Below the pieces are notes generated by a model. It saw only the letters and a program-made list of their open reading frames with translations. It ran no database searches and was not told the origin of the DNA. Shown in pieces: positions 5,367 to 37,462 of a stretch of 64,000 nt of DNA; the stretch's first letter is position 1; each line of letters starts with the position of its first letter. The translations under genes and the position numbers were made by a program. The DNA is from Candidatus Magasanikbacteria bacterium UBA922 (GTDB taxonomy: Bacteria > Patescibacteriota > Patescibacteriia > Magasanikbacterales > UBA922): assembly GCA_002293825.1 (NCBI GenBank), contig DBDW01000001.1:3314-67313 (forward strand), given 5' to 3'.

Positions 5367-5395
5367 TTGACAAAAAGCGGAAAATAACATACACT
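5367..5395 (+). promoter_or_regulatory. Sigma70-like promoter candidate for rpmB: TTGACA, 17 nt spacer, TACACT
   Basis: Hexamers read from sequence about 55 nt upstream of the rpmB start. Confidence 0.35.
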
Positions 5396-5449
5396 GTTCC
5401 GCATAACGTGTACACAGTATATCTTCTACTCGTCTTTAACGTCAACCAT

Positions 5450-5617
5450 ATGCGAAAATGCGAACTCTGCAAAAAAGGGACAGTCAGCGCAGCAAATCGA
5501 AGTCACTCAAATGTAAAAACACTTCGAAAGCAGCATGCCAACCTTCAAAAATTCATGGGAATGGTGTTGTGCAGTACCTGCCGAAGAACGATCAAAAAGC
5601 AGAACGCATCAGCATAA
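5450..5617 (+). CDS. rpmB: 50S ribosomal protein L28
   Basis: MRKCELCKKGTVSAANRSHSNVKTLRKQHANLQ matches the L28 N-terminus (CxxCGK...GNxxSHSNxKTxR..PNLQ). The 69 aa ORF-track start is too early. Confidence 0.85.
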   Translation: MRKCELCKKGTVSAANRSHSNVKTLRKQHANLQKFMGMVLCSTCRRTIKKQNASA

Positions 5618-5634
5618 TGCATTCAACTGAATTT

Positions 5635-5670
5635 AAAAAATCCCCAGAGAATTCTCTGGGGATTTTTTGT
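5635..5670. terminator. Bidirectional terminator between rpmB (+) and trhO (-): TCCCCAGAG...CTCTGGGGA flanked by A6 and T6
   Basis: Perfect 9 bp stem with A-run and T-run on either side. Confidence 0.65.
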
Positions 5671-5673
5671 ATC

Positions 5674-6591
5674 TTACACACTCATCTGATGTGCAAACGG
5701 ACGCTTCATATCTGCATTACCAAGAACAATCGCCTCACACGCAGTAGAACATGCTCCGTGCAATCGTGTGTGACAAGTGTCACACCCAATAAACAATGCA
5801 TTACATTCTTTATACACACAATTGCGATAAGTGTCGCAGAGCGTGTCACACACCGCACACTTACCTACAACAACCGCACTATCTGTGGTGTTTATTGGCA
5901 ACACCATACGATCATCGAAGGTAAAACATTTACCTTCGAAAAATCCTTCGTTTCCATATTTTTCTGCGTATTTTACAATTCCACCTTCCAATTGATAGGT
6001 GCGTTTTGGATCAAACCCATGAGCAACAAACAGCGCACTCGCAGGCTCACAGCGAATCCCGCCCGTGCAATACATGACTACTTTTTTATCCTTAAACTGA
6101 TCATAAAAACCCATGTTGTCTTTCAAATCTCGAAAATAACTCACCGGAGGATTGATCGAGTTTTTGAACCTACCTACCGCCCATTCATAATCATTACGCA
6201 TGTCGATAAGTACCATATCTTCTCCTCGAAGGAGCCACTGATGAAATGTGTCTCTGTCTACATGTTTCCCACGCTTGGTCCAGTCAATATGATCTTTGAT
6301 TTCTGTCGTAATAATTTCATCGCGATATCGCACACGCAATTTTGGAAATGGAAGAAAATCAGCAATATGCTCTTTCCAATCAATATCTTTGTAAAGACGG
6401 TGCTGATCCATATACGCACGATACAACTCAATAGATTCTTTGGTACCACCAATATTTCCATTGATTCCATAATCACCAATCAAAATCCGACCCTTGATAC
6501 CCAAAGCCACACAAATCTCTTTGTGCATTTCTACCTCTTTTGCAGGATTTTTGATGTTGACGATTTTGTAATACAACAAGGTGTGATACAT
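5674..6591 (-). CDS. trhO: Rhodanese-domain tRNA uridine(34) hydroxylase TrhO (UPF0176/YceA)
   Basis: MYCTGGIRCE rhodanese active-site motif and C-terminal Cys-rich tail typical of the YceA/TrhO family. Confidence 0.8.
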   Translation of the reverse strand: MYHTLLYYKIVNIKNPAKEVEMHKEICVALGIKGRILIGDYGINGNIGGTKESIELYRAYMDQHRLYKDIDWKEHIADFLPFPKLRVRYRDEIITTEIKDHIDWTKRGKHVDRDTFHQWLLRGEDMVLIDMRNDYEWAVGRFKNSINPPVSYFRDLKDNMGFYDQFKDKKVVMYCTGGIRCEPASALFVAHGFDPKRTYQLEGGIVKYAEKYGNEGFFEGKCFTFDDRMVLPINTTDSAVVVGKCAVCDTLCDTYRNCVYKECNALFIGCDTCHTRLHGACSTACEAIVLGNADMKRPFAHQMSV

Positions 6592-6709
6592 ACTTCAAAT
6601 TCAAAACTGTAACTAAAATCTTAAAAATTTTAAAGAAATCAATATATCTAGTTTTATTTTTTAATTATCACATTACGTTTTGACAGACAAACGTTGGATT
6701 CATCGCTTG

Positions 6710-6783
6710 TCGGGCTGACACGACTTGAACGTGCGACCTCATGACCCCCAGCCATGCGCTCTAGCCAACTGAGCTACAGCCCG
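6710..6783 (-). tRNA. tRNA-Pro (anticodon GGG)
   Basis: Reverse complement folds as a cloverleaf: acceptor CGGGCUG/CAGCCCG, D-arm GCUC..GAGC, anticodon stem CAUGG/UCAUG with loop CUGGGGG (G37), T-arm GCACG UUCAAGU CGUGU, discriminator A. CCA is not encoded. Confidence 0.85.
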
Positions 6784-7300
6784 ATAGATACTGCATTACT
6801 TCATGTCCCAATGCCTGAAAACGCTACATTCATATTAGATCTACTCAGTTCACTTTACACGACTACTGACCTACTGAGCCATACTCCGATTTCTCATCTC
6901 GTACACAGTACGCTATACAGATGCAGTTCACATACTAAACTAAAAAACTCTTTTTTTCAAGAGTTCATTAGTGACCGCGGAGCGGAAGCGTACGAAATAC
7001 TACTCCTAAACTAGTTAGGTGGGTAGCCGCACACCAGGCCCACGGGCCGGGAAAATATAGGCCTCCCAATGGCAGTATTTTGTAGAATAGTATATGTACG
7101 ACTTCCTGCGTATACCGTGGTCTTTTTTACTATAACAACAGAATGAAAAACATGCAAACCCTCTGTGACCGAAAAATATTGGGTTACAACATACTGGTAC
7201 CATGCTATCCCCTATATTCCTTACACAGGACATATACAGGACAGCAGGCGATCGAAAAGCATTCACTCTTCGATCGCCACAGAACATGCAGAAGCTTTCT

Positions 7301-20037: not shown

Positions 20038-20952
20038 CTATGCTCCGATTAATACAATTTTCACTTTGTTTCCCAATTTCTGATCAGACACCACCCCAAA
20101 GAGTATTCGTGCATTCTGATCCACCTGACCTGCGATATAATTCCCTACTGCAGACACACTCTCCATGAGCACCTCACGACCCGCATAAATCACATACAGT
20201 ACGCGCTTCATCTGTGACACCTCGGGCGCTCTCAATGCAGGATGTACAAATAAGGTATCTGTAATCGATGCAATATTTGATTCATCACTCTCAACACTAT
20301 GAAAAAACAATGATCCTGCCGACTGAATCGTAGTTTTCAAATCCGCAAAATCAATATTGATAAGTCCATGCGTATCGACAATATCAAGAATCATGCTGAT
20401 GGCCTGCTCGATCACCCGATTCACTTGCATCAATCCTTCAGATGCGCTCGCCATACCAAGTACACGCGCACTATCGACCACGATCATCCCATCTACTGCG
20501 CCAGACACAATCGCACTCGCTCGATCTACCAAATCCTGTCGAGTAGCTCCTTCGAATGGAAATGCGGTCCTGCCCACAAAACACGTAAGTATTCCCTGTG
20601 CACGTGCCAAATTCGCCACCTCAGCCACCTGATACGCATTTGATTCGGTCGCCAGATTCCCCACGAGAAATACCATATCCGCCCCCGAGAGCACACCACG
20701 TACCTCACGCTCGACCGTAGCCATCACTTCTCGCGCTCCAGCTACGGGATCATTCGATACGAGGCTCATATACGGAACCTCGATTTTCGTAGTGATGTGT
20801 GGTGCATGTGCGAGTGCACTCGGTAGCCCGATTGACACGAGCTCGATCGTACGAGATGCCAGATGATACAGGCGATCGATAATCAGAGCTCCCTGCCCAC
20901 CGATAGAGATGATACGAATACGTGGATGTGATGAAGATTTTTTTGGAGGCAT
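20038..20952 (-). CDS. Divergent FtsZ/tubulin-family paralog with degenerate nucleotide-binding loops (pseudo-FtsZ)
   Basis: Aligns along its full length with FtsZ (IRIISIGGQGAL vs IKVIGVGGGGGN; GADMVFLVGNLATESNAYQVAEVA vs [27 protein letters not shown]; T7 loop NIDFADL conserved). The T1 and T4 glycine loops are lost. Start at the MPPKK Met. Confidence 0.75.
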   Translation of the reverse strand: MPPKKSSSHPRIRIISIGGQGALIIDRLYHLASRTIELVSIGLPSALAHAPHITTKIEVPYMSLVSNDPVAGAREVMATVEREVRGVLSGADMVFLVGNLATESNAYQVAEVANLARAQGILTCFVGRTAFPFEGATRQDLVDRASAIVSGAVDGMIVVDSARVLGMASASEGLMQVNRVIEQAISMILDIVDTHGLINIDFADLKTTIQSAGSLFFHSVESDESNIASITDTLFVHPALRAPEVSQMKRVLYVIYAGREVLMESVSAVGNYIAGQVDQNARILFGVVSDQKLGNKVKIVLIGA

Positions 20953-21009
20953 AGTAGGATGATTCAAGAATAGTGCGATACTGTGTACTATATCACAGCA
21001 CACACATGA

Positions 21010-21045
21010 GACAAAAAAATCGAACAGTTTTAGTGTTCGATGTGT
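21010..21045 (-). terminator. Rho-independent terminator after the NERD gene (ATCGAAC..GTTCGAT then T7 on minus strand)
   Basis: Hairpin plus a 7-nt homopolymer read from sequence. Confidence 0.55.
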
Positions 21046-21140
21046 AGACTCTACTGTCATTCTGAGCCGAATGCACCTGAGGCGAAGAATCCCTTCACGA
21101 ATGATATACACAACAATATTCAAGGGATCCTTCACTGCGT

Positions 21141-21878
21141 TCAGGATGACACACTTTCCTTTTGTTTTTTTCTCAACACTCCTTCTATCTTCTGCACCAC
21201 ATCTGATGAAAGCTTCTCTACCTCATTATCAAGTATTGTTTTTCTCAGCCATTTTTTTCCAACCACACGCACACCTTTCACATCATTATTTCCGAAACGT
21301 ATTCGCGCCGAGTGAGAACTGAACACAATAATCGGTTTTACAAAATACTCTTCCTTGAGCTCAGATAGTAAAAACGCATGCACATCCACAGCCTCACTCA
21401 TGACCTGAGATAAAATATTTTTCTCAAGCCTACTGCCATCTCTGGCAAGCTCATCACCATCATATCCAATACTTCCTTTATAACTCTTCGCATCAATCGC
21501 GAATACACCCGTCGGACCGACCACCACAAAATCAACATCACAATTCTCTCTAAATTTTAAACCATGAAACACAATATATTCATTTGGAAGTTGCGCAAGA
21601 ATTCTACGAACAACCATCTCACCATCTTGTCCATTCAGTGCACTAAAAAACCCAGTCCTACTTCTATCAATTAGAATAAATAATAATTTGAATAAGCCTA
21701 TCCACGCTAGTAATAAAATTAGAGAAACCCACCATAGCAACACAAAAAATAATCGAATATAGTAAAAATAAATAAGTAACAAAATTACCGTTGCCCCAAC
21801 AGCGCTTAAGAAGCGAAAACGATTTTTCTCTTTTTTATCTATTATATATTCACTCTCACCTCCGTATACTTTTGCCAT
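21141..21878 (-). CDS. NERD (nuclease-related domain) protein with N-terminal transmembrane helices
   Basis: 2-3 hydrophobic helices, then GEMVVRRILAQLPNEYIVFHGL...DVDFVVVGPTGVFAIDAKSYKG, typical of NERD. Confidence 0.7.
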   Translation of the reverse strand: MAKVYGGESEYIIDKKEKNRFRFLSAVGATVILLLIYFYYIRLFFVLLWWVSLILLLAWIGLFKLLFILIDRSRTGFFSALNGQDGEMVVRRILAQLPNEYIVFHGLKFRENCDVDFVVVGPTGVFAIDAKSYKGSIGYDGDELARDGSRLEKNILSQVMSEAVDVHAFLLSELKEEYFVKPIIVFSSHSARIRFGNNDVKGVRVVGKKWLRKTILDNEVEKLSSDVVQKIEGVLRKKQKESVSS

Positions 21879-21882
21879 AGTA

Positions 21883-22632
21883 CTATACTATAAGATTATT
21901 TCTAGCTTCGACATATCGACACCAATCGCAGCTCTTCCCTGTCTCTGGGATCGTGTCACTCTCGAGACATTTTTTTATTTTCAGCAGTGTCGGCTCGACC
22001 CATGAATCGTCGCCCGTATATGGAATAAGATTCACATCAAATTCTATGCGTTTATCAAATGCTTCTCGATCCATTTTTCCCGTACAGTACACAAAATATC
22101 CGGTATCAGAAACCAGCAAACCATTCTGTCGCAAGAGCCACTGATACACTTCCATCTGTCGCTTGTAGCCATCTTGCCATTCTTTGTCGAGTTCGGTCAC
22201 CGCTTCCTCTTTTGCAGTAGCCTTGTAATCGACGACAATATATTCATCTGCGCCGGTGATCCAGAGATCATCGATCGCACCCGAGACCAGAAGTCCAGTC
22301 GGCTCGTGCAGATATTTCATTCCGCCAAAATTATATCTCCACTCATCGAGCTCATCGTGTGCCACGGGTCGAGCATCAATCCCATACTCTTTCTGCAATG
22401 GATGCTGTTCACCTCGCACCCGATGTGCGTCGAATTCTTGTTTTAATAAATGATCGACTGCACTATTGATGGAAAACGGAAACCCGGGGACGCGCTTCAC
22501 ACCAAGCTTATTATCAATATAGAAACAACGCGGACACTCAAGAAACAGATCAATCTTTGATCTGCTCAGTTTCCAATTGTTTCCGCCGTAGTTCCAGGCG
22601 TCGCCTCGAGTAGGGTTGTAGAAGGTGGACAT
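21883..22632 (-). CDS. Cas4/RecB-like PD-(D/E)xK nuclease with predicted Fe-S cluster cysteines
   Basis: N-terminal CPRC, VVDYK (DxK), QMEVYQ (QxxxY), C-terminal CDWC. Confidence 0.65.
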   Translation of the reverse strand: MSTFYNPTRGDAWNYGGNNWKLSRSKIDLFLECPRCFYIDNKLGVKRVPGFPFSINSAVDHLLKQEFDAHRVRGEQHPLQKEYGIDARPVAHDELDEWRYNFGGMKYLHEPTGLLVSGAIDDLWITGADEYIVVDYKATAKEEAVTELDKEWQDGYKRQMEVYQWLLRQNGLLVSDTGYFVYCTGKMDREAFDKRIEFDVNLIPYTGDDSWVEPTLLKIKKCLESDTIPETGKSCDWCRYVEARNNLIV

Positions 22633-22636
22633 ACAA
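22590..22636. repeat. Copy 1 of a 46 bp direct repeat: encodes the real N-terminus (MSTFYNPTRGDAWNY) of the Cas4-like nuclease
   Basis: 41/46 identity with 23569-23615. Confidence 0.8.
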
Positions 22637-22643
22637 AATATTC

Positions 22644-23450
22644 TTACTTTTTTTCAATTTTTTTATTTTTACTGCGACGTATTCTAGTTTCGGCTTTCCC
22701 TACACCATCCACAGTTGGCAGTTCTTCAGGCATAGTACCGCCCAATTCTTCGATCGTTTTTCTCACTTTTTGTCCCACATGATAATGTGTCAAATTCGCA
22801 TTCATTTCTCCCTGCACACTTTCTCTCCTCAATTTTGCGTCTGCTTGAGTAGCACGAAATAAATTTGCAGCCAGCTCTTCACTGCCCATGTGATCGAGAA
22901 TCTTTTGAGATTTCTTCAATTGTTTTCTCTGATGAATATCTGAAGCATCCAATCCACCATACAAACCCTTATATCCATAATTCTGAAATCTCCCATAGTT
23001 TGTCACACCAGCTCCTTCTGCTGCTTCAAGTAACGAAGCATTGTGTTTCTTTACCTCATCTCGCAACCTCACACGTTTTTGATCTTCGAGAAGTGCATCA
23101 GAAACTTCTTGTTTTCGAGTTTGAATAGCAAAATATGTTTGACCCAATGCCACGATTTCCTTACTTGGATCAGAATTCTGAATAATCAGATAACAGCCAT
23201 AGCGTGATAGATGTATAGTATCAATACGTCTCTCGGCACCAGACCCGATCATGACCATTTCGTCCACATGGGAAAAATGGTTGTGGATATCTTGACCACT
23301 ATTCTTGCACGCTTCCTTTGCTTTCTCAATTACATTCAAAAATTTGCTATAGTTAGGATATTCTAAGACCTTTGCCAAATCACGGGAAGACCAATACTCA
23401 CCCCCGTATTCATTAACTTTTTTTAAGCGCTCGAATGCATTATGTACCAT
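22644..23450 (-). CDS. dinD: DNA damage-inducible protein D / RhuM-family protein
   Basis: EYWSSRDLAKVLEY...LSRYGCYLIIQNSDPSKEIVALGQTYFAIQTRKQE closely matches E. coli DinD. Confidence 0.85.
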   Translation of the reverse strand: MVHNAFERLKKVNEYGGEYWSSRDLAKVLEYPNYSKFLNVIEKAKEACKNSGQDIHNHFSHVDEMVMIGSGAERRIDTIHLSRYGCYLIIQNSDPSKEIVALGQTYFAIQTRKQEVSDALLEDQKRVRLRDEVKKHNASLLEAAEGAGVTNYGRFQNYGYKGLYGGLDASDIHQRKQLKKSQKILDHMGSEELAANLFRATQADAKLRRESVQGEMNANLTHYHVGQKVRKTIEELGGTMPEELPTVDGVGKAETRIRRSKNKKIEKK

Positions 23451-23616: not shown

Positions 23617-24015
23617 TTACTTAAGTAGATTCCATGTATCTTTATATTTTAAAATAGCTCCTTTCATGATTCTTTTTTCTTTTTTAAAATGACTAATCAA
23701 TTTAGATAATTCGACACTCGGTACTATATATATTTCAGGCTCAACTGCCAAATCTTCAAATTTATTATTATAAATAACAAAAACTACAAAAAGATCTTTT
23801 TTTACTAAGACATTATTCACCACCAAAGATGAGTACCCTCTCACTGATTTCACATCAATTGATATCGATGTTCCATCCTTTTTTACAACCCTAATGTCAA
23901 TGCTCTTCTTGTTACCTTGACTAATATAGGCTTCCATTCCCAATCTATACAACTTTGATAACACTAAATACTCACTTGCAATACCGGTATCGAAGGTATT
24001 TCTTCTTGGTGGCAT
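23617..24015 (-). CDS. Putative Hjc/NucS-like PD-(D/E)xK nuclease (restriction-endonuclease fold), hypothetical
   Basis: E..(24 aa)..DIRVV..(10)..IDVKS pattern; 132 aa. Confidence 0.4.
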   Translation of the reverse strand: MPPRRNTFDTGIASEYLVLSKLYRLGMEAYISQGNKKSIDIRVVKKDGTSISIDVKSVRGYSSLVVNNVLVKKDLFVVFVIYNNKFEDLAVEPEIYIVPSVELSKLISHFKKEKRIMKGAILKYKDTWNLLK

Positions 24016-24019: not shown

Positions 24020-24451
24020 TTATTTTTTTAACAATACAAAATATGGTAATTTGTCTAACCCTATATAATTAAACATCCAGTAATTCGCACGTCTCGCTGT
24101 TTCTGATAATTTATGTTTTTTTAAATGGGTCTTTGGAACAAACGGGTAAAATCTAATTTCCTGGTGATTTCCCTCTTTATCTTTCCATTTAAAATTCGCG
24201 ATCAGTGCTGGTGTAATAAAACCAGATTTCAAGACTTTATCCATAATTTCCCATCCTGCACCAAAAATAATTGGTTTTGGTTTACTTTGGTTAGTCTTCA
24301 CTTGTGCACGAAAAGAACAGCCAGTGCATTGCACATCATATAAGGGATAGTTGGGTGGCAAGATCATGAGTTTTTTTGCGCAATTTGGACACGGTACATT
24401 TTCTACCACATCCAATTCACCTGCACGACCGTTTTCTTGATTTTTGGACAT
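24020..24451 (-). CDS. Hypothetical zinc-ribbon protein (CPNC-x17-CTGC) linked to the 3' end of hsdR
   Basis: ORF begins 17 nt after the hsdR stop; it would overlap hsdR by 20 nt if the upstream start at 24487 is used. Confidence 0.5.
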   Translation of the reverse strand: MSKNQENGRAGELDVVENVPCPNCAKKLMILPPNYPLYDVQCTGCSFRAQVKTNQSKPKPIIFGAGWEIMDKVLKSGFITPALIANFKWKDKEGNHQEIRFYPFVPKTHLKKHKLSETARRANYWMFNYIGLDKLPYFVLLKK

Positions 24452-24467
24452 ATATATAAATAATCTT

Positions 24468-27400
24468 TTATACGCTCTCCCCCGCAAACAACTCAGCCTG
24501 TTTCAATACGGTATCAGTTGCAATTTCTTGCGCATCCGGTGGATAGCCATATTGATTGAGCAAACGCTTAACCATAATACGCATACGCGCACGGGCTGAT
24601 TCTCTTAGACTCCAATCAATTGATGCATTTTCTCGCACGCGTTGTACCAAAATTCGGGCCAGTTCTCTCAAGGTATCGTCACCAAGTACTTTTCCCGCAC
24701 TTTCATTCATTACCAAAGCATCATAGAATGCAATCTCATCTTCAGTCAATCCTAGATTTTCTCCACGCTTATCAGCTTCTTGTACTTCATGCGCGAGCTT
24801 GATCAACTCATCGATTACTTGCGCTGCAGTTAATAAATTATTTTGGTATTTCTTGATTGCCGCATGAAGTATTTCTGAAAACTTTTTGCTCTGTACCGCA
24901 TTCTTTTTTCCTCGTGTTCTGATTTCATCATTTAATATTTTCTTGAGTAATTCAAGCGCAATATTTTGTCGTTTCATGCCGCGAATTTCTTCCAAGAATT
25001 CTTCTGAAAGAATAGAAATATCTGGTTTTTTGATTCCGGCAGCATCAAAAATATCAATCACCCCTTCCGACACCACTGCTTTGTCTACGATTTGTCGGAT
25101 CGTAGTCTCAATATCCATATCTTTTCCTCCCCCATCGCTCGCCAGTTTGGTAAGTCGTGCTTTGACTGCTTGGAAAAAGGCTACTTCATCTCGAATTTCA
25201 ACTGCTCTCAAATTTGGCATCGCAAGCGCAAATAATTTTCCGAGCGCATTCACTTCTGTGACAAATCGTTCTTTGTGATCTAGATTCCCAAGCAAAAAAT
25301 CTTCTACTTCAAGAATCGCAACTAATTTTTGTTTTGCTGTGCCGGTAAAATATTTTGAATAGTCTACATCGTGTAAAATTCCCTGCACAATTTCATATTT
25401 AGCAAGCATGTGCGGCACGGTATCCACTGTCTGATCGGCAATCATACCACCCGTTCCACCACTCTCAGTATAAACAGCAAGCGCTTCCTTGAGATCACTT
25501 GCAATGCCGATATAGTCGACAATGAGACCACCTGGTTTATCCTTAAATACTCGATTCACACGAGCAATCGTCTGCATGAGATTGGCTCCCTGCATAGGCT
25601 TATCAATATACATGGTATGAAGGCAGGGCACATCAAATCCCGTAAGCCACATGTCGCGCACAATCACGAGTTTCAATGGATCTTTAGTATCCTTGAATCT
25701 GGTCGCCAGATCTTTTCGATCTTCTTTGGTGGTATGATGCGGTTGCCAATCGGTCGGATCGGATGAAGATGTAGTCATGACGACTTTAAGTGCCCCCTGT
25801 TTCTTGTCATCACTATGCCATTCTGGTTTTAGTTTTATAATCTCTCGGTAGAGCTCGACTGCAATACGACGACTCATGGCCACAATCATTGCTTTTCCTT
25901 CGAATACTTCTTGTCGTGCTTCAAAATGCGCGACCAGATCACGCGCAATGTCTTGCAATCGTGCATGGTGTCCCACAATTGCCTCAAGCTGTGCCCATTT
26001 TGCTTTCGCTTTTTCGCTCACGGTTGATTCTTCACTTTCGAGTACGGCATCGACTGCACGATCAAGTTCTGCTTTTTTGTTTTCATCAAATCCAATTTTT
26101 ACCAATCGTGATTCGTAACTGATAGGAACCGTCGCCCCATCCACGACTGCTGCCTGGATATCGTAGACATCAACATAATTACCAAAGACTGCGCGAGTAT
26201 TGGCATCATTTTTTTCAATCGGAGTGCCAGTGAACCCGATAAACGACGCATGAGGTAGTGCATCTCGCAGATATTTTGCAAATCCATACGTAGTCTCTGC
26301 ACCCGTTTCAGTTGTTTTCACTTTTGCCCGTAATCCATATTGACTTCGGTGTGCTTCATCGGCCATGACAATAATATTTTCTCGATCCGAGAGTTTGCCA
26401 TACTCAGTCTCCCCTTCAGCCAGTGAAAATTTCTGAATGGTGGTAAATATAATGCCTCCACCTGATGTTGCTAATAGTTTTTTCAAATGTTCACGATTTT
26501 CTGCCTGGACCGGCTCCTGACGCAAGAGTTCGGTCGCTCCGGCGAAGGTATCAAATAATTGTTGATCAAGGTCGTTTCGATCCGTAATCACCACAATTGT
26601 CGGATTATTGAGTCTCTGCACAATCTTTCCTGCATAGAAAACCATGGATAATGATTTTCCTGATCCTTGCGTATGCCATACCACTCCAGCCTTCCGATCA
26701 CCTCGCGTTGCACTCAGTGTAGAATCGAGTGCTTTTTCTACCGCAAAATATTGATGATAGGCTGCAACTTTCTTGATCGTGCGAGTATAGGGCAACCCTG
26801 CATCATCAAATTTTCGTTCTTGTTCGTAGACCGTAAAATTTCGAACGAGATCAAGCAATCGCTCAGGCGTAAGCATTCCCAGTACTAATGTTTCAATCTC
26901 TGGCACCGTACGTTTCTCATCACGTGCTCCATCAATCGATTTCCACGCGAGGAATCGATCAAATCCGCTTGTGATCGTACCCATACGGGCGTCGAGACCG
27001 TCTGAGATGACGAGGATTCCATTGTACGCAAATAAATCAGGAATTGCTGATTGGTAATTGGTAAGCTGAGTAAATGCTTTGTGCACCGTCGCCTCTTCAT
27101 TCTTCGCATCTTTGAGTTCAATCACGACGAGTGGTAATCCGTTTACAAAGAGTACTACATCAGGAATTTTGTCTCGTTCCAGTCCCTTGATATAGAATTG
27201 ATTAGTTGCAAGCACATCATTATGTGACACCTGCTCCCAATCAATCACCCGCACTTCCCGTCCGCGCATATGTCCCTCTTCAAGAATTTCTACGGTTACT
27301 CCTTCTACGAGCAGGCGATGTACCGCACGATTATTTTCTACGATATTGTCGGTCTGGGTAGCAGTATGAATAATCTGATTCACTGCAAAGTTTCTCGCTT

Positions 27401-27575
27401 CTTCGGGGATATCAGGATTGAGCCGAGCGATTGCAGTGACCAGTCGATCACGAAGTATTACCTGCGAGAGATCCGGTCGCTCGGGTTCGAGTGCCTCGGG
27501 ACTGAGGTATGAAAAACCTGCTTCGCGGAGAAGGTCGAGGGTGAGTTGTTCGATTGAGGATTCGTTGAGGGTCAT
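24468..27575 (-). CDS. hsdR: Type I restriction enzyme R subunit
   Basis: 1035 aa with SF2 helicase motifs (TGSGKS, DEAHRSQ) and N-terminal nuclease region. Confidence 0.95.
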
Positions 27576-27576
27576 A

Positions 27577-28884
27577 TTATTTCATTTTAACAATCAAATC
27601 TAATACCTTCTTAAAGGTTTCACTATCAGGCAACAGATCTTGCAACGTTTTAACCTCTTCCAAAAAATCAGTGCCATCTTTTTTATTTCTTGACTTGTCC
27701 AACTTCTCTTTTGCATTAGCAACCTCTTCATAAGGTGATTGATAAAGCAAACACAAATTATCTGAAATAAATTTAACTATATCAACTTTAGTCTCAGGTA
27801 ATTTACTCTTAACACTAACGTTTACAACATCTTCTAACAAAAACTTCGTGTGATTTCTTATTACAGCCGCGATTACAGCCTTAGAGGCATATTTTTCATT
27901 AAGTTTTCTCTCGTGACTATACTGTTTTGCAGCCAAACCAACTAAAAACAATAGTGGTGATGTTAGTGTTAATCTATATAATGTCGTTTCTATTCCAGGA
28001 TGACTATCCCTATGAAATAAAATAAACAACATAATGGAGAGTAAAATTATACCTAGAACAAAAACACCCAACCAAATCAAAGAACTTATACGTAATAATT
28101 TTTCTCTCTTTTGAAAAGAATTTGCAAAACCTGTATCTGTGATCAAAGCTGTGATTTTTTCAACTTCTGACTTATTAGTATTTATCTCTTTAAGCCCTTG
28201 CTCAGACTCGTCTTTCATTTTTAAAACAGTATCCTTTACTTGTTTTATATCTTCAACTAGTTTAGCTGATTGATCACGAAAAGATTTTATTTCAACCAAC
28301 AAAGCATTCGATTGTTTCTGCAAGTCGACTGACTGATTAAGGATTGCTTGAAGCCCGTTATTAGTATCATTTATTTTAGCATTAACAGCAACAAAATCTT
28401 CATAAGCTTTTTGAATTTGGGAAATCTTATTTTGTATCTCAACAAATTGTTTTTCAATCTCAGCTAAACTTTGCTGAGATTTAGTCTTTATATTTTCGAC
28501 ATCTCCCTTAAAACTTGCCGCGGTGGAAACCAAAGCTTCGACCTCACTATTACGTCCTTCAATTTTTCCTTTAATATTCTCTATCTTTTGTAAAAATTCA
28601 TCAATTTTCTCTACATTTGGACGAGCTTGCTCAACATTATTTTTTATTTCTGATAAATATGTGTTGACTTTTTCTTTAATATTTTCAATTACTACCAATC
28701 TCTCACGAGAATCATTTGATATTTTTTCAATATCAATATTTCTAGTCTCGACTGCTTTAAATGCAGCATCATATCGAACACTAAGTGTATTAATTTCATC
28801 AAGTAAATTTTTTGCTTTCTTATATTGATTTCTTAACTCTTGTAATTCTTGTTGAGTAATGTTTTGACTATTTGTATCATCCAT
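27577..28884 (-). CDS. Hypothetical 435 aa protein: about 255 aa N-terminal coiled coil, two adjacent TM helices, and a 140 aa C-terminal domain, embedded between hsdS and hsdR
   Basis: Heptad-rich K/E/Q/N/I N-terminus; [28 protein letters not shown]; 5 nt gap to the hsdS stop, 1 nt gap to the hsdR start. Confidence 0.7.
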
Positions 28885-28889
28885 ACTTT

Positions 28890-30125
28890 TTACTTAAAAA
28901 TTTTGTTTAATATTTTATCTCTTAATTTTGACAAAGTTTGAATTTCAAAAAAATTTAGTTTTATCTTTCCAAATTGAGAAGAGACAGTATTACTAAATAA
29001 ATTAAGAATATCACTGTTTGGTATATTGATTTCAATATTTGAAAAAACGCCTGTATTTACATTTAGAGTTGCAGAACCTCCACCGCCGATCATTTGCAAA
29101 TCACTACTCATTGATTTCAATACAAAATACAAATATTGTAAAATATGTTCATCTTTAGGAATAATTGAATTTATTTGCTGATTTGTTTGAGAAGCTTCTG
29201 TGGTTATGGAAACTAAACCAACGGTTGCAATACAACTTACACAAATCGAATTTTCTGGCACATATTTATTTCTTTGTGTATCTGCACCAGATAGAGTCAA
29301 TGAATCTTCTGTTTTAACTATAAACATTTGACCATGCATGTCTGGAATTTTAATAAATGGAACTTGTCCTCCAAAAAATTCTTGATTTGATTTTGACGGA
29401 GTTTTGCCGCAGACAATATCTCCGATATCCCCCAACTTCCCAACCCTCCATCCCTCCGGAATCATCCCAAGCTCAGAATCAACCATCTTCCCTGTCGCAC
29501 CTGGAAATCTGAAATCCACAAACCATTCTTTGAAGAGTGTCTGTGCGATACTTTCGAGTGTATTATTTTCTTTTCGCAGCAGCTCGATCTTGTCGTCGAG
29601 ACTTCCGAGGATTGCGGCGATTTCGCGTTGTTCGGAGAGAGGTGGAAGTAAAAATTCATAGTCTCCAATTTTTGTAGGTGACGTATGCTTAACAGTACTG
29701 CCCGTTGCAGAATTCACAATAGACTTCTGATAATCTCTTGTTCTCATCAGATAGTAAATGAAATCTTTAGATACTTCATCTTCATTAACTTCTACAAGAC
29801 CAACTCGTTGATTATGCAAAAATATTTTATCACTTTTATCTGGTATTAATGCGGGGAAACCTAAGGTATCACCCTCCTTACTCAAATCTGTCATTGTTAC
29901 CACCAAATCCCCCGCCTTTAAGACGTATTCATCAGGAATTGGCCCATCATAGTACTTTTTGCCATCCTTCCAGCCTCCCCCAATCAAAAAATTACCTGGT
30001 GTAAGTAGAATATTTTTTGTCTCCTTAGTTGAAAAATATTCACCTTTAAAAGCAAAACCATGTTTTATACTGACTATGTCACCAAGCTTTATTGTTTTCC
30101 AATTTTTTGATGAGGTGAGGGGCAT
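28890..30125 (-). CDS. hsdS: Type I restriction-modification specificity subunit (two target-recognition domains)
   Basis: 411 aa with duplicated TRD architecture and conserved central and C-terminal spacer helices. Confidence 0.9.
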   Translation of the reverse strand: MPLTSSKNWKTIKLGDIVSIKHGFAFKGEYFSTKETKNILLTPGNFLIGGGWKDGKKYYDGPIPDEYVLKAGDLVVTMTDLSKEGDTLGFPALIPDKSDKIFLHNQRVGLVEVNEDEVSKDFIYYLMRTRDYQKSIVNSATGSTVKHTSPTKIGDYEFLLPPLSEQREIAAILGSLDDKIELLRKENNTLESIAQTLFKEWFVDFRFPGATGKMVDSELGMIPEGWRVGKLGDIGDIVCGKTPSKSNQEFFGGQVPFIKIPDMHGQMFIVKTEDSLTLSGADTQRNKYVPENSICVSCIATVGLVSITTEASQTNQQINSIIPKDEHILQYLYFVLKSMSSDLQMIGGGGSATLNVNTGVFSNIEINIPNSDILNLFSNTVSSQFGKIKLNFFEIQTLSKLRDKILNKIFK

Positions 30126-30127
30126 AT

Positions 30128-30634
30128 TTATTTAACACCAATCATTTTTCTAAATTCATCTGCAATTTTTTCTTCTTGCAACACCAAATCTGTTCTCATC
30201 TTTTCAGCAAGTTCATCCCATAATCTCGCATTTGGAATTTCACCTATTGGATGCGCCTCATACACAAAGTCAACAAAAAGCTTTCTATAATCATCTCGCA
30301 ATATGTCCATATTTTTACACAGATTCTTTGGTAAATAATGCTTCTTGGCATGATAGTATCTTATAAAATCATTAAATAGATTACTTGCTTTTGTTCGACG
30401 TTCAAATTCTGCATCCTGAGAACCATCATCTTGTTGAAAGATTGACACAAGCTCAGACATGGATTGCTTTAAAGATTCCATTTTTTCCATCAGACTATCA
30501 AAAACCTCTCCACGCTTTGTATACAGTCCGGATTCTTTGATAGCACGAATTTGTGTTCGATGATTCATCCATCCAGTAACTACAGCTGCCACCAAACCAG
30601 AACTAAACACTGATAATACAATAGTTTGCAAGTC
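30128..30634 (-). CDS. Hypothetical protein with N-terminal TM helix (169 aa), embedded in the R-M locus
   Basis: Start at MDLQTIVLSVFSSGLVAAVVTGW; the ORF-track start at 30700 is probably too early. Confidence 0.5.
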   Translation of the reverse strand, partial: DLQTIVLSVFSSGLVAAVVTGWMNHRTQIRAIKESGLYTKRGEVFDSLMEKMESLKQSMSELVSIFQQDDGSQDAEFERRTKASNLFNDFIRYYHAKKHYLPKNLCKNMDILRDDYRKLFVDFVYEAHPIGEIPNARLWDELAEKMRTDLVLQEEKIADEFRKMIGVK

Positions 30635-30641
30635 CATATAA

Positions 30642-30890
30642 TTAATTCCAACCCATTTTATACAACATAAAACCTCCAACAAGGAGAACAAAAAGTCCAA
30701 TTAAAACTTGCCCCCACCATATTTGATACCATTTTTCTGTACGCCCCGCACCATCATCAAAACTATTTCCTCGTGCAAAAGTATTTTCCCCTTCATCTTG
30801 AATTCCAACATCAAATCCTGAAAAAGAGTTGTTAATAAATTTATTATTTTTTCCCCTATTGAGGACGCCCACACTCTTTTTTTGTGTCAT
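30642..30890 (-). CDS. Hypothetical tail-anchored small membrane protein (82 aa, C-terminal TM)
   Basis: WYQIWWGQVLIGLFVLLVGGFMLY hydrophobic C-terminus; 7 nt upstream of the next gene. Confidence 0.4.
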   Translation of the reverse strand: MTQKKSVGVLNRGKNNKFINNSFSGFDVGIQDEGENTFARGNSFDDGAGRTEKWYQIWWGQVLIGLFVLLVGGFMLYKMGWN

Positions 30891-30977
30891 AAAATTTATT
30901 TTAAGATTCTGTTCTCACTATATACGTCTTAAAAAACTTCTTAATCGTCTCAACTGTTACACCCCTTATCTCGCTCA

Positions 30978-32168
30978 CTAATTATTTTTATTAAGCGATT
31001 GTGGAATAAACCCATTTTTCTCAAGTGATGTAATCACACTTCGTAATAGATAATTATTATTGAATCCAATCGTATAAATACGACCATTCTCATTGATTGA
31101 TTGAAGCATTTTTTTATCCAACAATTTTCTAATAATGCGCGATCGTTGCACTGAAGATTCCTGACCAATCACCTTCTCAAGATCTGCAGATTTAATCGTC
31201 ATTTTCTTGGAACGAATGACTGCTTTCAGAATTTCATACTCTCGGTCCGTGATCATCTTCTTTTCTAGTGCGTCAGTAATAGATGGGAGGAGGATTTTCT
31301 CGACCACATAGTGTATATTCAATAATCGATCAATTTTTTCTATTTCATCTTTTAATCCTCCAAGCACATACTCACACCACGCAAGCACATGCTCTGTTTT
31401 TCCTGTATCAGCGAGTGCCAGCATGTCATAATATTTTTGGCGATCCATACAGAATATAGCGGTCGGATTGAGAATCCGCCCCGCCTTTACTTGAAAATTT
31501 TGTTTGATAAGCATTGCATAGGTAAACATGCGTACCATACGACCGTTTCCATTATCAAATGGATGTACCCAGGTCATGCGATGATGAGCAAGTGCGGTGA
31601 CCAATAAATCATTCTGCAAATCTACCGGAGTATTCACAAATCCTAGTAATTCTTCGAGATATGTCGGTACTTGTATAGGATCAGGAAGTACTACAGTAGC
31701 ACCCTTAATTGAAACAGGTGTCTTTCGCAATTGACCTGGATATTTTGAACCCTCACCATCTGGGGGAGGTGTAAGCCCATCCACAATAATTTTATGAATT
31801 TCTGAAAGATGTGCTCGGGTAATTTTTGTACCATTTTTTATTTGTGCGTCAATAAATTCGATCGCGCGATCAATATTAAAAATTTCCCGTAGTTTTTCTT
31901 CGGTAGTATCTTTAGGCACTTGATCAATAATTTTTTCTACAAATTCAGCAAGCGTAGTTCGATTTCCCTCAATACGCACTGAACCCAAACTTTCCATCCA
32001 CTGAAAAATTTCTTTGAGTTGAAAAAAGATATATGGAGGTACCGCACCACCTAATCTCTTAACCCGTAACTTTTCTAGCTCAACAATAATGCGCGCTAAA
32101 TTCGACCCCCAACTAGGTTCAGGAAGTATCAAAGGGATATCTATAAATGTAACATTTTCATTTGACAT
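30978..32168 (-). CDS. Fic/DOC family protein (AMPylase-type), embedded in the type I R-M locus
   Basis: HPFDNGNGRMVR Fic motif; 396 aa. Confidence 0.9.
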   Translation of the reverse strand: MSNENVTFIDIPLILPEPSWGSNLARIIVELEKLRVKRLGGAVPPYIFFQLKEIFQWMESLGSVRIEGNRTTLAEFVEKIIDQVPKDTTEEKLREIFNIDRAIEFIDAQIKNGTKITRAHLSEIHKIIVDGLTPPPDGEGSKYPGQLRKTPVSIKGATVVLPDPIQVPTYLEELLGFVNTPVDLQNDLLVTALAHHRMTWVHPFDNGNGRMVRMFTYAMLIKQNFQVKAGRILNPTAIFCMDRQKYYDMLALADTGKTEHVLAWCEYVLGGLKDEIEKIDRLLNIHYVVEKILLPSITDALEKKMITDREYEILKAVIRSKKMTIKSADLEKVIGQESSVQRSRIIRKLLDKKMLQSINENGRIYTIGFNNNYLLRSVITSLEKNGFIPQSLNKNN

Positions 32169-32291
32169 AATTTAACACCAATACTTGATAAAATAGCTCT
32201 ATGTAGCTATTTTTTAGCTGAATTTACTATAGCATTATTTATCAAATTATGCAAGAGGTTATTTAACATCAATACATCATTACTACTATCT

Positions 32292-32509
32292 AATGGCAAC
32301 ATTTTTCTTTAATTTGTTGCCATTTAACCAGAGAAGTCAACAAAATTTTACCTTATTTTAGCCAAAATTTTGCATCTTAGTTAAGTATTGATGTGACACT
32401 TAACCAAAAGTAATTTTTATTGCTTAATCTAGCTAAATTTAATCTTCAATGGCAACAATATCGCCTATTTTGTTGACCTTACTCACCTCAGTGGCAACAA
32501 AACTATAAA
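32292..32509. repeat. Cluster of (A/T)ATGGCAACA motifs: three direct copies (about 32292, 32448, 32491) plus one inverted copy (32316-32325) forming a palindrome, inside a 550 bp AT-rich noncoding region
   Basis: Motifs read from sequence; additional hairpins at 32193-32215 and 32380-32404. Confidence 0.5.
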
Positions 32510-32686
32510 ATATCTCATTGTAGCCACATTTTTTGCCTGATAGTTAAAGTCTTTACCTATTGATCAGCAGAGGAGAAAAACTATCCTTTTTTACAAAATG
32601 TGGATAACATCAGTAATTATTGACTTTTTAAGATTTTTTATGTATAGTGTATATACATTTGGCGTCCCACATACGTGGGAAGCTCC

Positions 32687-32718
32687 GCTCCTCGCTCCGG
32701 CGAGGAGCTGTTTTTTTA
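32687..32718 (+). terminator. Strong + strand rho-independent terminator (GCTCCTCGC-TCCG-GCGAGGAGC then T7) with no + strand ORF upstream
   Basis: Perfect 9 bp GC-rich stem and T7; overlaps the stop codon of the convergent mazF-like gene. Confidence 0.65.
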
Positions 32719-33130
32719 TTCAAACTGTTTCCGAAATTCAGTTCGCACACTCATGAATTGTTCACTATCGAGCTTTGATTTTTTGCGCAATAACCGTTTC
32801 GCGCTAATTACCCTTCCTTGAGAAATATTGACACTTCTCACCTCTTCATCAATCACCACATGCATCTGATACCACGGTTTTTCTTCTTTTATCTTCGTAC
32901 TTGTCGGCAAAACAAAGCACATATCTCTCGAATATTTTTTGAGAATCAGCACTGGTCGTTCAAACAAATCATTTTTACCATCCACCTCATATCCAATATT
33001 TTTTTCCCAATGCCGCCCACCATATCTCACGCTCTTCAAAATATACTTCTCTTTTCTCTTGATTCAGATGATGACGAATCTTCTTTTTTGTCCATGCGAC
33101 AAATTTTTCACCCACCTCATACGGAGTCAT
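32716..33130 (-). pseudogene. MazF/PemK-family endoribonuclease toxin gene interrupted by a +1 frameshift in an A7 homopolymer (plus-strand T7 at 32999-33005)
   Basis: The upstream frame encodes ...REVYFEEREIWWAALGK, then a stop. The downstream frame continues NIGYEVDGKNDLFERPVLIL...MCFVLPTSTK.... Removing one A gives a continuous 137 aa MazF-like protein. Confidence 0.6.
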
Positions 33131-33152: not shown

Positions 33153-34697
33153 CTATATCTCAATACCCACTTTTTTCAACTGTTTTTTGATCTCCTCATT
33201 AAGCCTTCCCTCTTCCTCGATCTGCCCTTTGAGCTCTACCGCAAGCTTCCCCATTTTTTCCTCAAACGGAATTCCATCATCAATCGCATCAGTAATCCCA
33301 ACATAGCGACCCGGAGTGAGTACATAATTGTGCTTTTGTACGTCTGCAAGTGTTGCAGATTTAGTGAATCCTTTTTTGTCTTCATACTTCCCATCCTTCG
33401 TTCTCCATTCGTGATAGACACCTGCCACCATTTCTATATCCTCATCACTAAATTCTCGATGCGTACGATCTGCCATGAATCCTACATCTGATGCATCGAT
33501 AAATAATATCTCACCCGTACGTTTCCGATCACCATTTCCGACACGTTTTCGCGAAATAAACCAAATACATGCAGGAATACCAGTGTTGTAGAATAATTGT
33601 TTTGGAAGCATGACAATACAATCGACCAGATCCGCATCTACGAGCGCTTTTCGTATCTCACCCTCACCACTTGATTGTGACGAGAGCGATCCATTTGCAA
33701 GCACACACGCCATTACTCCATGTGGCGAGAGATGGTAAATCATATGCTGAAGCCACGCAAAATTTGCATTGCCTGCCGGAGGCTTGCCATATTGCCAGCG
33801 CGGATCATTCTGTAATAATTCCGCACTCCAGTCTGAAACGTTGAATGGCGGATTTGCCAAGATATAGTCTGCTTTGAGATCCTTGTGTGCATCATTGAGA
33901 AATGATCCTTCAGTATTCCATTTGATTCCACTTCCATCAATGCCACGGATTGCCAAATTCATGCGCGCGAGGCGATACGTGGTCTGATTACTTTCCTGTC
34001 CATAGACTGCCAGATCATCAATTCTCCCCGCATGAGATTTCACAAATTTTTCTGACATGATAAACATTCCCCCACTTCCACAGCATGGATCATAGATGCG
34101 TCCTTTGTAGGGCTCAATCATTTGTACCATCAACTTTACAATTGATTTTGGTGTATAGAATTGACCACCTTTTTTTCCTTCAGCATTAGCAAATTCTCCG
34201 AGGAAATATTCATAGACGCGACCCAATAAATCTTTTGATTTTGCTTCTTCATCTCCGAGTGCAATATTGCCAATAAGATCAATCAATCCTCCGAGTGAGC
34301 CTTTATCAAGATTTGGCCGAGCAAATACTTTGGGCAAAATTCCTTTGAGTTCTGGATTGAGTTTTTCTATTGCTTCCATGGCGCGATCGAGATCTTCTCC
34401 AATCGTCGGCAATTTTGACCGACTATGCAGAAATGACCAGCGTGCTTCTGCTGGCACATAAAACACATGTTCTGCTCGGTATTCATCTATGTCTTCTGGA
34501 TTTGCACCTGTTCCTTTTTCTTTTTCTAGTGTCAGTTTAGCATGAAGTTCTTCAAATGAATCAGAAATATACTTGAGAAATACCAATCCAAGCGCGACAT
34601 TTTTGTATTCTGCTGCATCAATGTTTTTGCGGAGTTTATCCGCTGCTTTAAACAACGTTTTTTCGAAATTTTCTACTGGTTTTTTTTGTTGAGCCAT
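33153..34697 (-). CDS. hsdM: Type I restriction-modification methyltransferase subunit
   Basis: N6-adenine MTase motifs: LANPPFN (NPPF), DPCCGSGGM (motif I). Start at MAQQKK. Confidence 0.95.
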
Positions 34698-34788
34698 AAT
34701 AAAAAATAGTACTCTCATAGTAGCACCCTGCAGTATATGCGTCAATTTATTCTACTTACCTAAAATCCGCATATTTCAGCTGATTTTC

Positions 34789-36935: not shown

Positions 36936-36975
36936 CAAAAAACCCTGTACCGTTCTGGTACAGGGTTTTGTGTTT
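36936..36975 (+). terminator. Rho-independent terminator (CCCTGTACC-GTTCT-GGTACAGGG then TTTTGTGTTT); its T-tract overlaps the 3' end of rnpB on the opposite strand
   Basis: Perfect 9 bp stem read from sequence. Confidence 0.6.
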
Positions 36976-37377
36976 CACACGATTCCTATAAGCCGAATTT
37001 TGTTCCCAGCTTGCGCCGGGTGATAATCATTTATCTTGTCCTACTATTACTAGCAGGATCATACACGAACTAACTTTTCGAATCCCGAAATGGGGAAACG
37101 CTGTTCTTTCTCCAGGTAGGGTTTACCGCCATACTGTCTTGCGACAGATGTAGTGTGGTAGCATTGATACGGCGCATATGCTGAACCTATCAATACCTCC
37201 ACACTCTTTTCACCTTTCCCCTGAATCACGAGGATTCAGAGTAGTATTGTCTCTGTGGCACTGTCCCGCATACGATCTCGCGACCGCATGGATGGATGTT
37301 ATCCACTACCCGTGTTCTTGACATAATATCAAGAGGAGTTCGGACTTTCCTCCCGTAGGGGCGATTATCCAGAATCG
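36971..37377 (-). ncRNA. rnpB: RNase P RNA (bacterial type A)
   Basis: 14 bp P1 helix between GTTTCACACGATTC (5') and GAATCGTGTGAAAC (3'). GGGAGGAAAGTCCGAACTCC matches the P4 5' strand. CAGTGCCACAGAGACAATAC matches the conserved P10/11 region. Also GGTGAAAAGAGTG, GGCGGTAAACCC, and ACAAAATTCGGCTTAT matching the P4 3' strand. Confidence 0.85.
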
Positions 37378-37462
37378 TGTGAAACAGGAGAAGGATAGCA
37401 CACGAATGCGTAGTTGTCAATCGATACAGTCCAAAAAAATTGAGAAATAAAAAATCTATGTT

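Follow-up and report, generated by a model that had tools for sequence, protein, structure and literature searches.

A candidate restriction-linked membrane protein family encoded between hsdS and hsdR in Patescibacteria

We analysed a stretch of 64,000 nt, in the following called the window, from Candidatus Magasanikbacteria bacterium UBA922 (GenBank assembly GCA_002293825.1, contig DBDW01000001.1, positions 3,314 to 67,313). Its minus strand carries a type I restriction-modification (R-M) locus with an additional open reading frame (ORF), here called gene X, between the specificity gene hsdS and the restriction gene hsdR. The locus starts with hsdM; next come genes of the MazF/PemK-like and Fic/SoFic-like types, two small ORFs, of which one has a transmembrane (TM) helix, and then hsdS, X and hsdR. 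Next to the 3′ end of hsdR follow, on the same strand, a DpnI-like ORF, an ORF of 132 amino acids (aa), DinD, a PD-(D/E)XK protein and a NERD-TM protein. Going by this gene order and these neighbours, a type I system forms the core of a defence island here (Table 1).

The start of X lies 5 nt after the hsdS stop codon and its own stop codon 1 nt before the start of hsdR, as an earlier note on this DNA, made from the letters alone and silent on the strand, had described for an ORF of 435 aa; length and coordinates were confirmed. A scan of the hsd locus found no terminator-like sites between the three genes, and the numbers of sites in its promoter and terminator scans were not above those in shuffled sequences. 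hsdS, X and hsdR are probably co-transcribed, as predicted from this arrangement, and translationally coupled. In Pfam, X has no Methylase_S, N6_Mtase or HSDR_N/helicase domain, and is thus not an HsdM, HsdS or HsdR core subunit.

We built an AlphaFold2 (AF2) model of X with an alignment of 22 sequences. It has helices at residues 11–107, 112–171 and 178–249, followed by a membrane hairpin (251–291 and 298–359) and short C-terminal helices. The earlier note had proposed a heptad-rich coiled coil of about 255 aa, and the three long helices agree with this. Their 3.5-residue hydrophobic periodicity was equalled in none of 1000 shuffles, which supports a heptad coiled coil over residues 11–249. 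Of the two adjacent TM helices proposed next, the hairpin of two membrane helices stands, but the 28-letter stretch quoted for the pair is a single helix, TM1 (266–291), and the second, TM2 (304–322), lies 12 residues further on. TM1 is strongly hydrophobic; TM2 is weakly so, with many conserved T, S and P residues. Modelled alone, the hairpin reached a predicted local distance difference test score (pLDDT) of 88–96. Basic residues flank both of its cytoplasmic ends, which fits a hairpin in the inner membrane with both termini predicted to be inside the cell (N-in/C-in).

Conservation in the alignment is concentrated at four hot spots: the two inter-helix turns, the juxtamembrane motif, TM2 and the helix after TM2. 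Both turns (IKGKIEG at about 103–110, NTGL at 174–178) are kept in the family, with G106, G110, G177 and L178 invariant or nearly so. Around TM1, the invariant residues are D250, F257, R260 and W271; in TM2 and the following helix, which reads QYGxERxLNEKYAFK...RNH, they are R304, P310, E325, R326, E330, Y332, K335 and H345. The suggestion of a motif-free C-terminal domain of 140 aa had to be given up: the region after TM2 measures about 113 aa and opens with a stretch of some 40 residues (ERxLNEKYAFK...RNH) that is better conserved than any other in the family, a strong motif without annotation. In the tail beyond, conservation is limited to Y381 and P384. As a whole, the C-terminal membrane module is the best-conserved segment. 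Five fetched loci (L017 and L037–L040), of which L017 and L040 are apparently one contig, encode X in a shortened form of 370 aa without the variable tail; it looks like a true allele rather than an assembly error.

A word-indexed search yielded 53 homologs of X, about 50 of them full length, with 27–54% identity. With these homologs and 27 invariant positions among the 22 aligned members, X is a genuine gene. Named homologs are labelled Patescibacteria, Sungbacteria, Parcubacteria and Saccharibacteria; the closest relative of the window locus, L011, whose X is 92% identical, sits in a bin labelled ‘Gammaproteobacteria’. To reach more distant members, a profile of the C-terminal 198 residues was compared with 1.84 billion cluster representatives (50%-identity clusters), giving 1,702 representatives at an expect value (E) ≤0.001, 675 of them at ≤1e-10. 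In all hits examined the module was C-terminal, behind an N-terminal extension of 12–429 residues, mostly 200–250. Remote members retain a D-x-x-G-L tip and the module consensus, and in ten of them no Pfam or PADLOC model covers the module. Two distant relatives match the phage families phrog_34659 and phrog_30912. A word-indexed search with a broad module profile returned six proteins, and no viral copies of X turned up when IMG/VR viral contigs were scanned with the close-family module. The C-terminal module thus defines an unannotated superfamily, and the X family has no entry in Pfam, NCBIfam or PADLOC; our literature searches found no description of it. One superfamily member of 608 aa (P0132) carries an N-terminal F5/8 type C (discoidin) domain before the coiled coil and the membrane module. 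Another distant relative, P0053 of Acinetobacter bereziniae (locus L046), which matches phrog_34659, lies directly upstream of genes for SRAP, an S24 (UmuD-like) protein and UmuC in prophage-like surroundings, with GmrSD and a phage lysozyme close by.

We surveyed the genomic context in 50 loci, whose X proteins form about 25 groups at 90% identity. The earlier note had asked if homologs elsewhere, too, occupy the hsdS-hsdR junction or lie close to R-M genes, and the answer is clearly positive. The order hsdS-X-hsdR, with gaps of a few nt, was found in at least seven further loci: L010/L012, L011, L015/L036, L026, L007 and L045. In L010/L012 the genes are hsdM, AAA_15, RloB, hsdS, X and hsdR; in L045, hsdM, DUF3800, a gene without assignment, HEPN/MNT, hsdS, X and hsdR; and in L007, hsdM, RhuM, a gene without assignment, hsdS and X, with the end of the contig about 600 nt further on. 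L015/L036, from a Saccharibacteria metagenome-assembled genome (MAG), has DUF3800 between hsdM and hsdS. In L011, the hsdR that follows X is divided over two ORFs, possibly a pseudogene or an assembly error. A remote member in L050 directly follows hsdS and is apparently split in three ORFs; it is 26% identical to the X module, and its best local match reaches 37.5% over 48 aa. This locus has a Fic gene between hsdM and hsdS, like the window, and a 75 aa ORF after the X-like gene that could not be identified as HsdR. While the cargo between hsdM and hsdS (RloB/AAA_15, RhuM, DUF3800, HEPN/MNT) differs from locus to locus, X alone keeps the slot between S and R. It is nested on the same strand with short gaps in a multi-gene defence operon in the window, L010, L015/L036, L026 and L045, and recurs across divergent host systems and in other defence and mobile contexts, as expected of genes embedded in R-M systems.

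Identities to the window proteins are 85% for HsdM, 73.5% for HsdR and 47% for X in L010; 69%, 58% and 34% in L045; and 46–47%, 35–39% and 42% in L015/L036, with HsdR ranging from 35% to 88% across all embedding loci. By these values, hsdS-X-hsdR occurs in type I systems of different lineages. In L010, X has diverged faster than the HsdM and HsdR encoded with it; HsdS is 31% identical there. Compared with L007, the C-terminal half of HsdS (62%) and X (54%) are both more similar than HsdM (48%). The GC content is 0.27–0.31 over X and the 3′ half of hsdS (window positions 27500–29250) versus 0.42–0.47 in hsdR and hsdM. Together, the low GC and the identity pattern suggest that X is exchanged in one cassette with the second target-recognition domain of hsdS.

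Most other informative X loci have type II R-M genes within one to three genes of X. In about 11 groups, X is divergent from a LexA-like gene at a distance of 56–112 nt; L020 is an exception, with the LexA-like gene upstream of X on the same strand. In total, a LexA-like gene was found near X in 19 of the 48 fetched loci. It either heads a type II R-M operon (LexA, N6_N4 methyltransferase (MTase), TdeIII) or is fused to an MTase of the N6_N4, Dam (Dam/D12) or Eco57I/TaqI_C type, at times with BglII or HinfI (fragments) nearby. The most frequent Pfam assignments among 149 neighbour proteins were Peptidase_S24 (12), LexA_DNA_bind (11), N6_Mtase (7), N6_N4_Mtase (5), Methylase_S (4) and GIY-YIG (4). 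Because the LexA-like domains head or are fused to R-M MTases, they suggest that R-M is under damage-responsive control in these mostly patescibacterial loci. Two tandem small GIY-YIG-like ORFs (81–98 aa and 126–149 aa) often directly precede X in type II-linked loci with gaps of 3–6 nt and could form a small heteromeric nuclease co-expressed with X. Other neighbours of X are NgoPII with an adjoining C5-MTase, and an EcoRI_methylase with a GmrSD/HNH protein three genes away. In L035, two genes downstream of X and next to a Schlafen AlbA_2 protein, we found a Schlafen group-3 helicase with a C-terminal Peptidase_S24 fusion.

The divergent region of 56–60 nt between the LexA-like gene and X contains a palindrome, ATAACC-N13-15-GGTTAT, exact in six loci, for which the chance expectation is 0.01 per 64 kb. 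Its right arm overlaps TTATCC[AC]CA, which occurs in this form or as a near variant in all LexA-linked loci, 20–35 nt before the start codon that opens X or the GIY-YIG operon, and is the same as the E. coli DnaA-box consensus. Because the palindrome is shared in the LexA/X divergent region, it suggests that in these loci the LexA-like domain controls X jointly with the R-M unit. Both a LexA homolog and the palindrome are absent from the 64-kb window. The window contains, in the 547 nt gap between the MazF-like gene and Fic, a composite element GTCAATAATTACT-N4-TTATCCACA. L017 and L037–L040 have this element as well, there in front of the GIY-YIG/GIY-YIG/X operon; we tentatively assign it to the X feature.

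The association with LexA raises the question whether X is an SOS-type membrane protein, acting in a DNA-damage checkpoint of division or of the envelope, with its R-M linkage secondary to the LexA linkage. In Gram-positive bacteria, membrane division inhibitors of the YneA/ChiZ type lie divergent from lexA, and the frequency of LexA-like neighbours of X, often divergent with the shared palindrome, would fit this logic. So would further S24 proteins in the vicinity, namely the helicase fusion of L035 and the S24/UmuC pair of L046. We nevertheless consider an SOS role very improbable. The LexA-like domains head or are fused to R-M MTases and look like R-M controllers rather than a global LexA, and the X of the window sits in a constitutive-looking hsd operon without a LexA homolog nearby. 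X is also dissimilar to known division inhibitors; identity with EzrA was rejected (E 0.037, 12.8 bits versus a cut-off of 39.6), EzrA having an N-terminal TM helix and spectrin-like repeats, whereas the TM helices of X follow the coiled coil.

X also lies inside mobile elements with Rep and serine recombinases, in L005, L008, L016 and L022, and no R-M gene occurs within 8 kb of it in the proteobacterial-looking L044. X could therefore be autonomous defence or mobile-element cargo, for instance for abortive infection or exclusion, that rides permissive, co-transferred hotspots and is not coupled to restriction. The phrog matches of the remote relatives, one of them by the prophage-like genes of Acinetobacter, agree with this, as does the cassette exchange indicated by GC content and identities, and the embedded TgvAB system of Vibrio cholerae VPI-2 acts independently of the surrounding type I system (PMC11411939). 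We regard this explanation as unlikely. Ordinary cargo varies between hsdM and hsdS, while X holds the slot between S and R across deep divergence; in the type II loci, X shares its palindromic control region with the R-M unit; and the close-family scan of IMG/VR revealed no viral X.

The remaining features of the island are summarized with those above in Table 1. The DpnI-like ORF, which encodes a Zn-ribbon protein and overlaps the 3′ end of hsdR, is followed by an ORF of 132 aa without a family; the two may be a methyl-directed restriction module added to the type I operon. The 190 aa ORF and the 82 aa ORF before hsdS have no match in Pfam or NCBIfam and only noise in PADLOC. Among the ORFs of at least 60 aa, none stood out as an antitoxin to go with the MazF-like gene. 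On the plus strand of the gap next to this gene, a promoter-like TTGACT-17-TATAGT is followed by a perfect GC-rich hairpin of 9 bp and a T-run, from which a small RNA of about 60 nt could be transcribed, convergent on the MazF-like stop codon. An ORF of 365 aa with a glycine-rich N-terminal part lies beyond the NERD-TM gene, and a bacterial RNase P RNA of class A was detected elsewhere in the window.

Table 1. Coordinates of features in the window and in loci (L numbers) carrying homologs of X.
Feature	Sequence	Position	Strand	Basis or remark
hsdM (type I methyltransferase), first gene of locus	window	33153..34745	minus	Pfam N6_Mtase E 1.5e-108, HsdM_N
hsdM-hsdS cargo (MazF/PemK-like, Fic/SoFic-like, 82 aa ORF, 190 aa TM ORF)	window	30128..33039	minus	Pfam PemK_toxin, Fic; PADLOC SoFic 2.9e-38
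MazF/PemK-like gene	window	32716-33039	minus	
Fic/SoFic-like gene	window	30978-32168	minus	
190 aa ORF (N-terminal TM helix) and overlapping 82 aa ORF	window	30128-30890	minus	
Composite element GTCAATAATTACT-N4-TTATCCACA	window	32599..32624	minus	upstream of Fic
Promoter-like TTGACT-17-TATAGT	window	32620-32648	plus	
Hairpin and T-run	window	32687-32708	plus	
Candidate small RNA	window	32620-32708	plus	
hsdS (type I specificity subunit)	window	28890..30125	minus	Pfam Methylase_S, E 5.4e-45; directly upstream of X
Gene X, membrane-anchored coiled-coil protein, unannotated family	window	27577..28884	minus	ORF, ATG start, 435 aa
X, coiled-coil region, residues 11-249, three long helices, predicted cytoplasmic	window	28138..28854	minus	AF2, periodicity
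X, juxtamembrane motif ITDTGFAxxFQKR then TM1 (266-291), residues 245-291	window	28012..28152	minus	Kyte-Doolittle mean up to 3.05; pLDDT 88-96
X, TM2 and conserved amphipathic helix, residues 303-348, superfamily-module core	window	27841..27978	minus	invariant residues; module search
X, variable helical C-terminal tail, residues 349-435, Y-x-E/S-P-Y motif	window	27580..27840	minus	low pLDDT
hsdR (type I restriction subunit, full length)	window	24468..27575	minus	Pfam HSDR_N, SWI2_SNF2, T1R_D3-like, T1RH-like_C (C-terminal)
DpnI-like Zn-ribbon ORF, 155 aa	window	24020-24487	minus	DpnI-family match E 2e-11; overlaps hsdR by 20 nt
132 aa ORF	window	23617-24015	minus	
DinD, PD-(D/E)XK Cas4-like protein, NERD-domain protein with N-terminal TM helices	window	21141-23450	minus	DinD E 9e-110
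365 aa ORF	window	20038-21135	minus	sub-threshold FtsZ_C match, 26.3 bits vs 27 cut-off
RNase P RNA, class A	window	36973-37380	minus	156 bits
Palindrome ATAACC-N13-15-GGTTAT	L014	7957-7981		
Palindrome	L028	3129-3152		
Palindrome	L029	1317-1340		
Palindrome	L030	1553-1576		
Palindrome	L032	109-132		
Palindrome	L033	5218-5242		
LexA-like head or N-terminal fusion	L014	7308-7934, with 5724-7298 and 4937-5719	minus	LexA_DNA_bind + Peptidase_S24
LexA-like head or N-terminal fusion	L001	5634-7244		LexA_DNA_bind + Peptidase_S24
LexA-like head or N-terminal fusion	L034	5963-7516		LexA_DNA_bind + Peptidase_S24
LexA-like head or N-terminal fusion	L037	4782-7286		LexA_DNA_bind + Peptidase_S24
LexA-like head or N-terminal fusion	L022	2954-4315		LexA_DNA_bind + Peptidase_S24
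Tandem GIY-YIG-like ORFs	L001	7314-7610 and 7614-7994		
Tandem GIY-YIG-like ORFs	L037	7308-7553 and 7550-7990		
Tandem GIY-YIG-like ORFs	L013	about 1320-1987		
Tandem GIY-YIG-like ORFs	L034	7584-7964		
hsdR in two ORFs	L011	798-1757 and 1796-4018		
X variant of 370 aa	L017	6123-7235		
X variant of 370 aa	L037	7995-9107		
Schlafen group-3 helicase with Peptidase_S24 fusion	L035	3868-6219		
P0053 and SRAP, S24 (UmuD-like), UmuC	L046	8001-12120		

We compared X with known families and folds. Matches to SMC, Rad50, JetC, LmuB and tape-measure proteins in Pfam, NCBIfam, PADLOC and PHROGs were sub-threshold coiled-coil hits and were rejected as composition noise; those to SMC and Rad50 were confined to the coiled-coil arms and far under the cut-offs. 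A match to PspA (PspA/Vipp1/ESCRT-III) in one remote member was sub-threshold (E 0.029). X matches none of the PADLOC v2.0.0 models, PDC candidates included. Foldseek with the full-length model against the PDB gave nothing at E ≤0.001 and only axonemal coiled coils, the module profile against PDB sequences nothing under E 0.1, and the fold searches only generic helical hairpins. A strong match to a housekeeping family or fold, for which the earlier note had asked to look, was thus not found.

The prrC gene occupies the same slot between hsdS and hsdR; the papers on it cited below describe it as embedded in a type Ic locus. Its product, an anticodon nuclease of the EcoprrI locus, stays latent while physically associated with the restriction enzyme, until a phage inhibitor of that enzyme activates it (PMC1484252; PMC12707154). 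PrrC and RloC have an N-terminal ABC-type NTPase with Walker A/B motifs and an ABC signature, and a C-terminal Arg/Glu/His triad (PMC1484252). X resembles them as a single accessory gene nested in a type I operon, whose HsdR in the window has a T1RH-like_C domain, a positional feature only, and, like PrrC, which is mostly found embedded (bioRxiv 10.1101/2024.01.29.577857), it is found predominantly in this way. In contrast, it has no ABC-type NTPase, no Walker motif and no AAA/ABC family match; its C-terminus consists of a membrane hairpin and helices without an anticodon-nuclease triad; and it is a membrane protein that is also linked to type II R-M systems and LexA-like regulators. The earlier note had likewise seen neither a Walker or nuclease motif nor a likeness to PrrC or RloC, and both statements were borne out: a regular expression for Walker A and a search for nuclease motifs were negative, and Pfam, PADLOC and NCBIfam scans gave no ATPase or nuclease family match. 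Because every molecular defining feature tested was absent, X is not a member of the PrrC family, and the resemblance is one of logic and position.

Guilt-by-embedding has produced functional defence genes elsewhere (bioRxiv 10.1101/2024.01.29.577857; PMC11411939). Like the embedded genes of R-M, BREX and DISARM systems, including TgvAB, X is nested in defence operons, recurs in unrelated hosts and is found in other island contexts. Unlike TgvAB and the HEC proteins, which are GmrSD-like or soluble nucleases, X is a coiled-coil membrane protein without an enzymatic domain. With two-TM effectors of conflict systems, such as the SLATT domains of CBASS-type systems, it shares a two-helix membrane hairpin, a conserved flanking helix, a variable cytoplasmic sensor or adaptor region and defence contexts. 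It differs from them in that no nucleotide-signalling genes are adjacent to it. In HMM-to-sequence searches, neither SLATT_1–6 nor any other two-TM effector model matched X among the best 25 families (E up to 10), nor did such a model match the ten remote members (E up to 0.01). Identity with ZorA was rejected as well, as the tail-region matches in remote members were weak (E 0.0027–0.0083) and in ZorA a long tail comes after a MotA-like multi-TM proton-channel domain, whereas the two membrane helices of X lie toward its C-terminal side.

A functional link between X and restriction is favoured over chance by the slot-specific conservation, the association with several unrelated R-M types and the control region shared in the type II loci. 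Moreover, the membrane module is likely the working part of the protein and not a passive anchor, because it is best conserved, combines polar residues within TM2 with charges that are invariant at the interface, and defines a large superfamily with variable N-termini. With the PrrC precedent and the success of guilt-by-embedding, a second-line membrane effector appears the most likely role; the faster divergence of X than of HsdM and HsdR in L010 adds some support. We therefore tentatively favour X as a restriction-linked, membrane-acting second-line effector or sensor, an assignment that still falls somewhat short of an even chance. This bears out in part the earlier note, which had proposed a membrane-acting effector or sensor that the R-M complex would silence and phage anti-restriction proteins would release. 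The coiled-coil N-terminal 250 or so residues would be the probable sensing or regulatory region and the C-terminal hairpin with its charged amphipathic helix the probable working end. X would be a latent membrane effector, causing depolarisation, permeabilisation or growth arrest when switched on while restriction is under way or has failed. In the type I loci it would be made along with the enzyme and kept inactive post-translationally; in the type II loci the LexA-like repressor that belongs to the R-M unit would keep it off at the level of transcription until DNA damage induces it. It is in this sense that we infer an effector activity, a trigger and any contact with Hsd subunits. As the partners of X are diverse restriction enzymes, the data agree more readily with a general trigger than with contact to a single specific enzyme; such a trigger might be a phage product or DNA damage signalled through S24/LexA-type domains.

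Some of the same observations would suit a non-toxic role. X might be a membrane scaffold or regulator that holds or gates the nuclease, either near the site of DNA entry or off the chromosome, as in restriction alleviation; the earlier note had named a membrane tether of the type I enzyme as its alternative. Its place between S and R would serve joint translation, the long cytoplasmic coiled coil with its conserved turns suits protein docking, constitutive co-expression is no problem for a protein that is not toxic, and the LexA-type damage-responsive link fits self-protection after damage. Still, we think such a role quite unlikely: one protein would need to bind the unrelated HsdR, TdeIII, BglII, NgoPII and small GIY-YIG proteins, some members lack a nearby R-M partner, and strongest conservation of the hairpin and its interface charges, in a superfamily of this size, is unexpected for a simple anchor.

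Several points weigh against a second-line effector or sensor. The functions proposed for X are drawn from its sequence and genomic context, and no homology or fold similarity to a known pore former, toxin or defence effector was detected. The full-length model is weak (whole-chain pLDDT 67, predicted template modelling score 0.30), and nearly all homologs come from MAGs and metagenomes. With unrelated restriction enzymes beside X, a single specific protein-protein guard is unlikely as the general mechanism. A strict physical guard model of the PrrC type is weakened further by the copies in mobile elements (such as L008 and L016) and by L044. Finally, a membrane toxin made constitutively along with hsdR would need some form of autoinhibition.

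A broader generalisation, which we consider unlikely, is that the X superfamily constitutes an unrecognised class of membrane effectors or sensors coupled to restriction. The coiled coil would read the restriction state, either as HsdR that is blocked or absent or as damage relayed by LexA, and the hairpin would oligomerise and depolarise the membrane, making X a membrane-acting analogue of the PrrC guard with a wide distribution in Patescibacteria and outside them.

R-M operons with an embedded accessory gene are a known arrangement; the protein family of X is unannotated. Embedded accessory genes in restriction operons, such as those for PrrC, TgvAB and the HEC proteins, have repeatedly proved to have defence functions; X differs from PrrC, TgvAB and the GmrSD-like HEC proteins in being membrane-anchored and coiled-coil. 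The X family is concentrated in Patescibacteria, whose immunity appears to depend largely on R-M and has seen few experimental tests. Even as an autonomous defence gene, X would be a concrete, cloneable candidate. If it is coupled to restriction, it would provide a second worked example of cells monitoring their restriction systems and would link R-M, LexA-type damage sensing and membrane-level responses.

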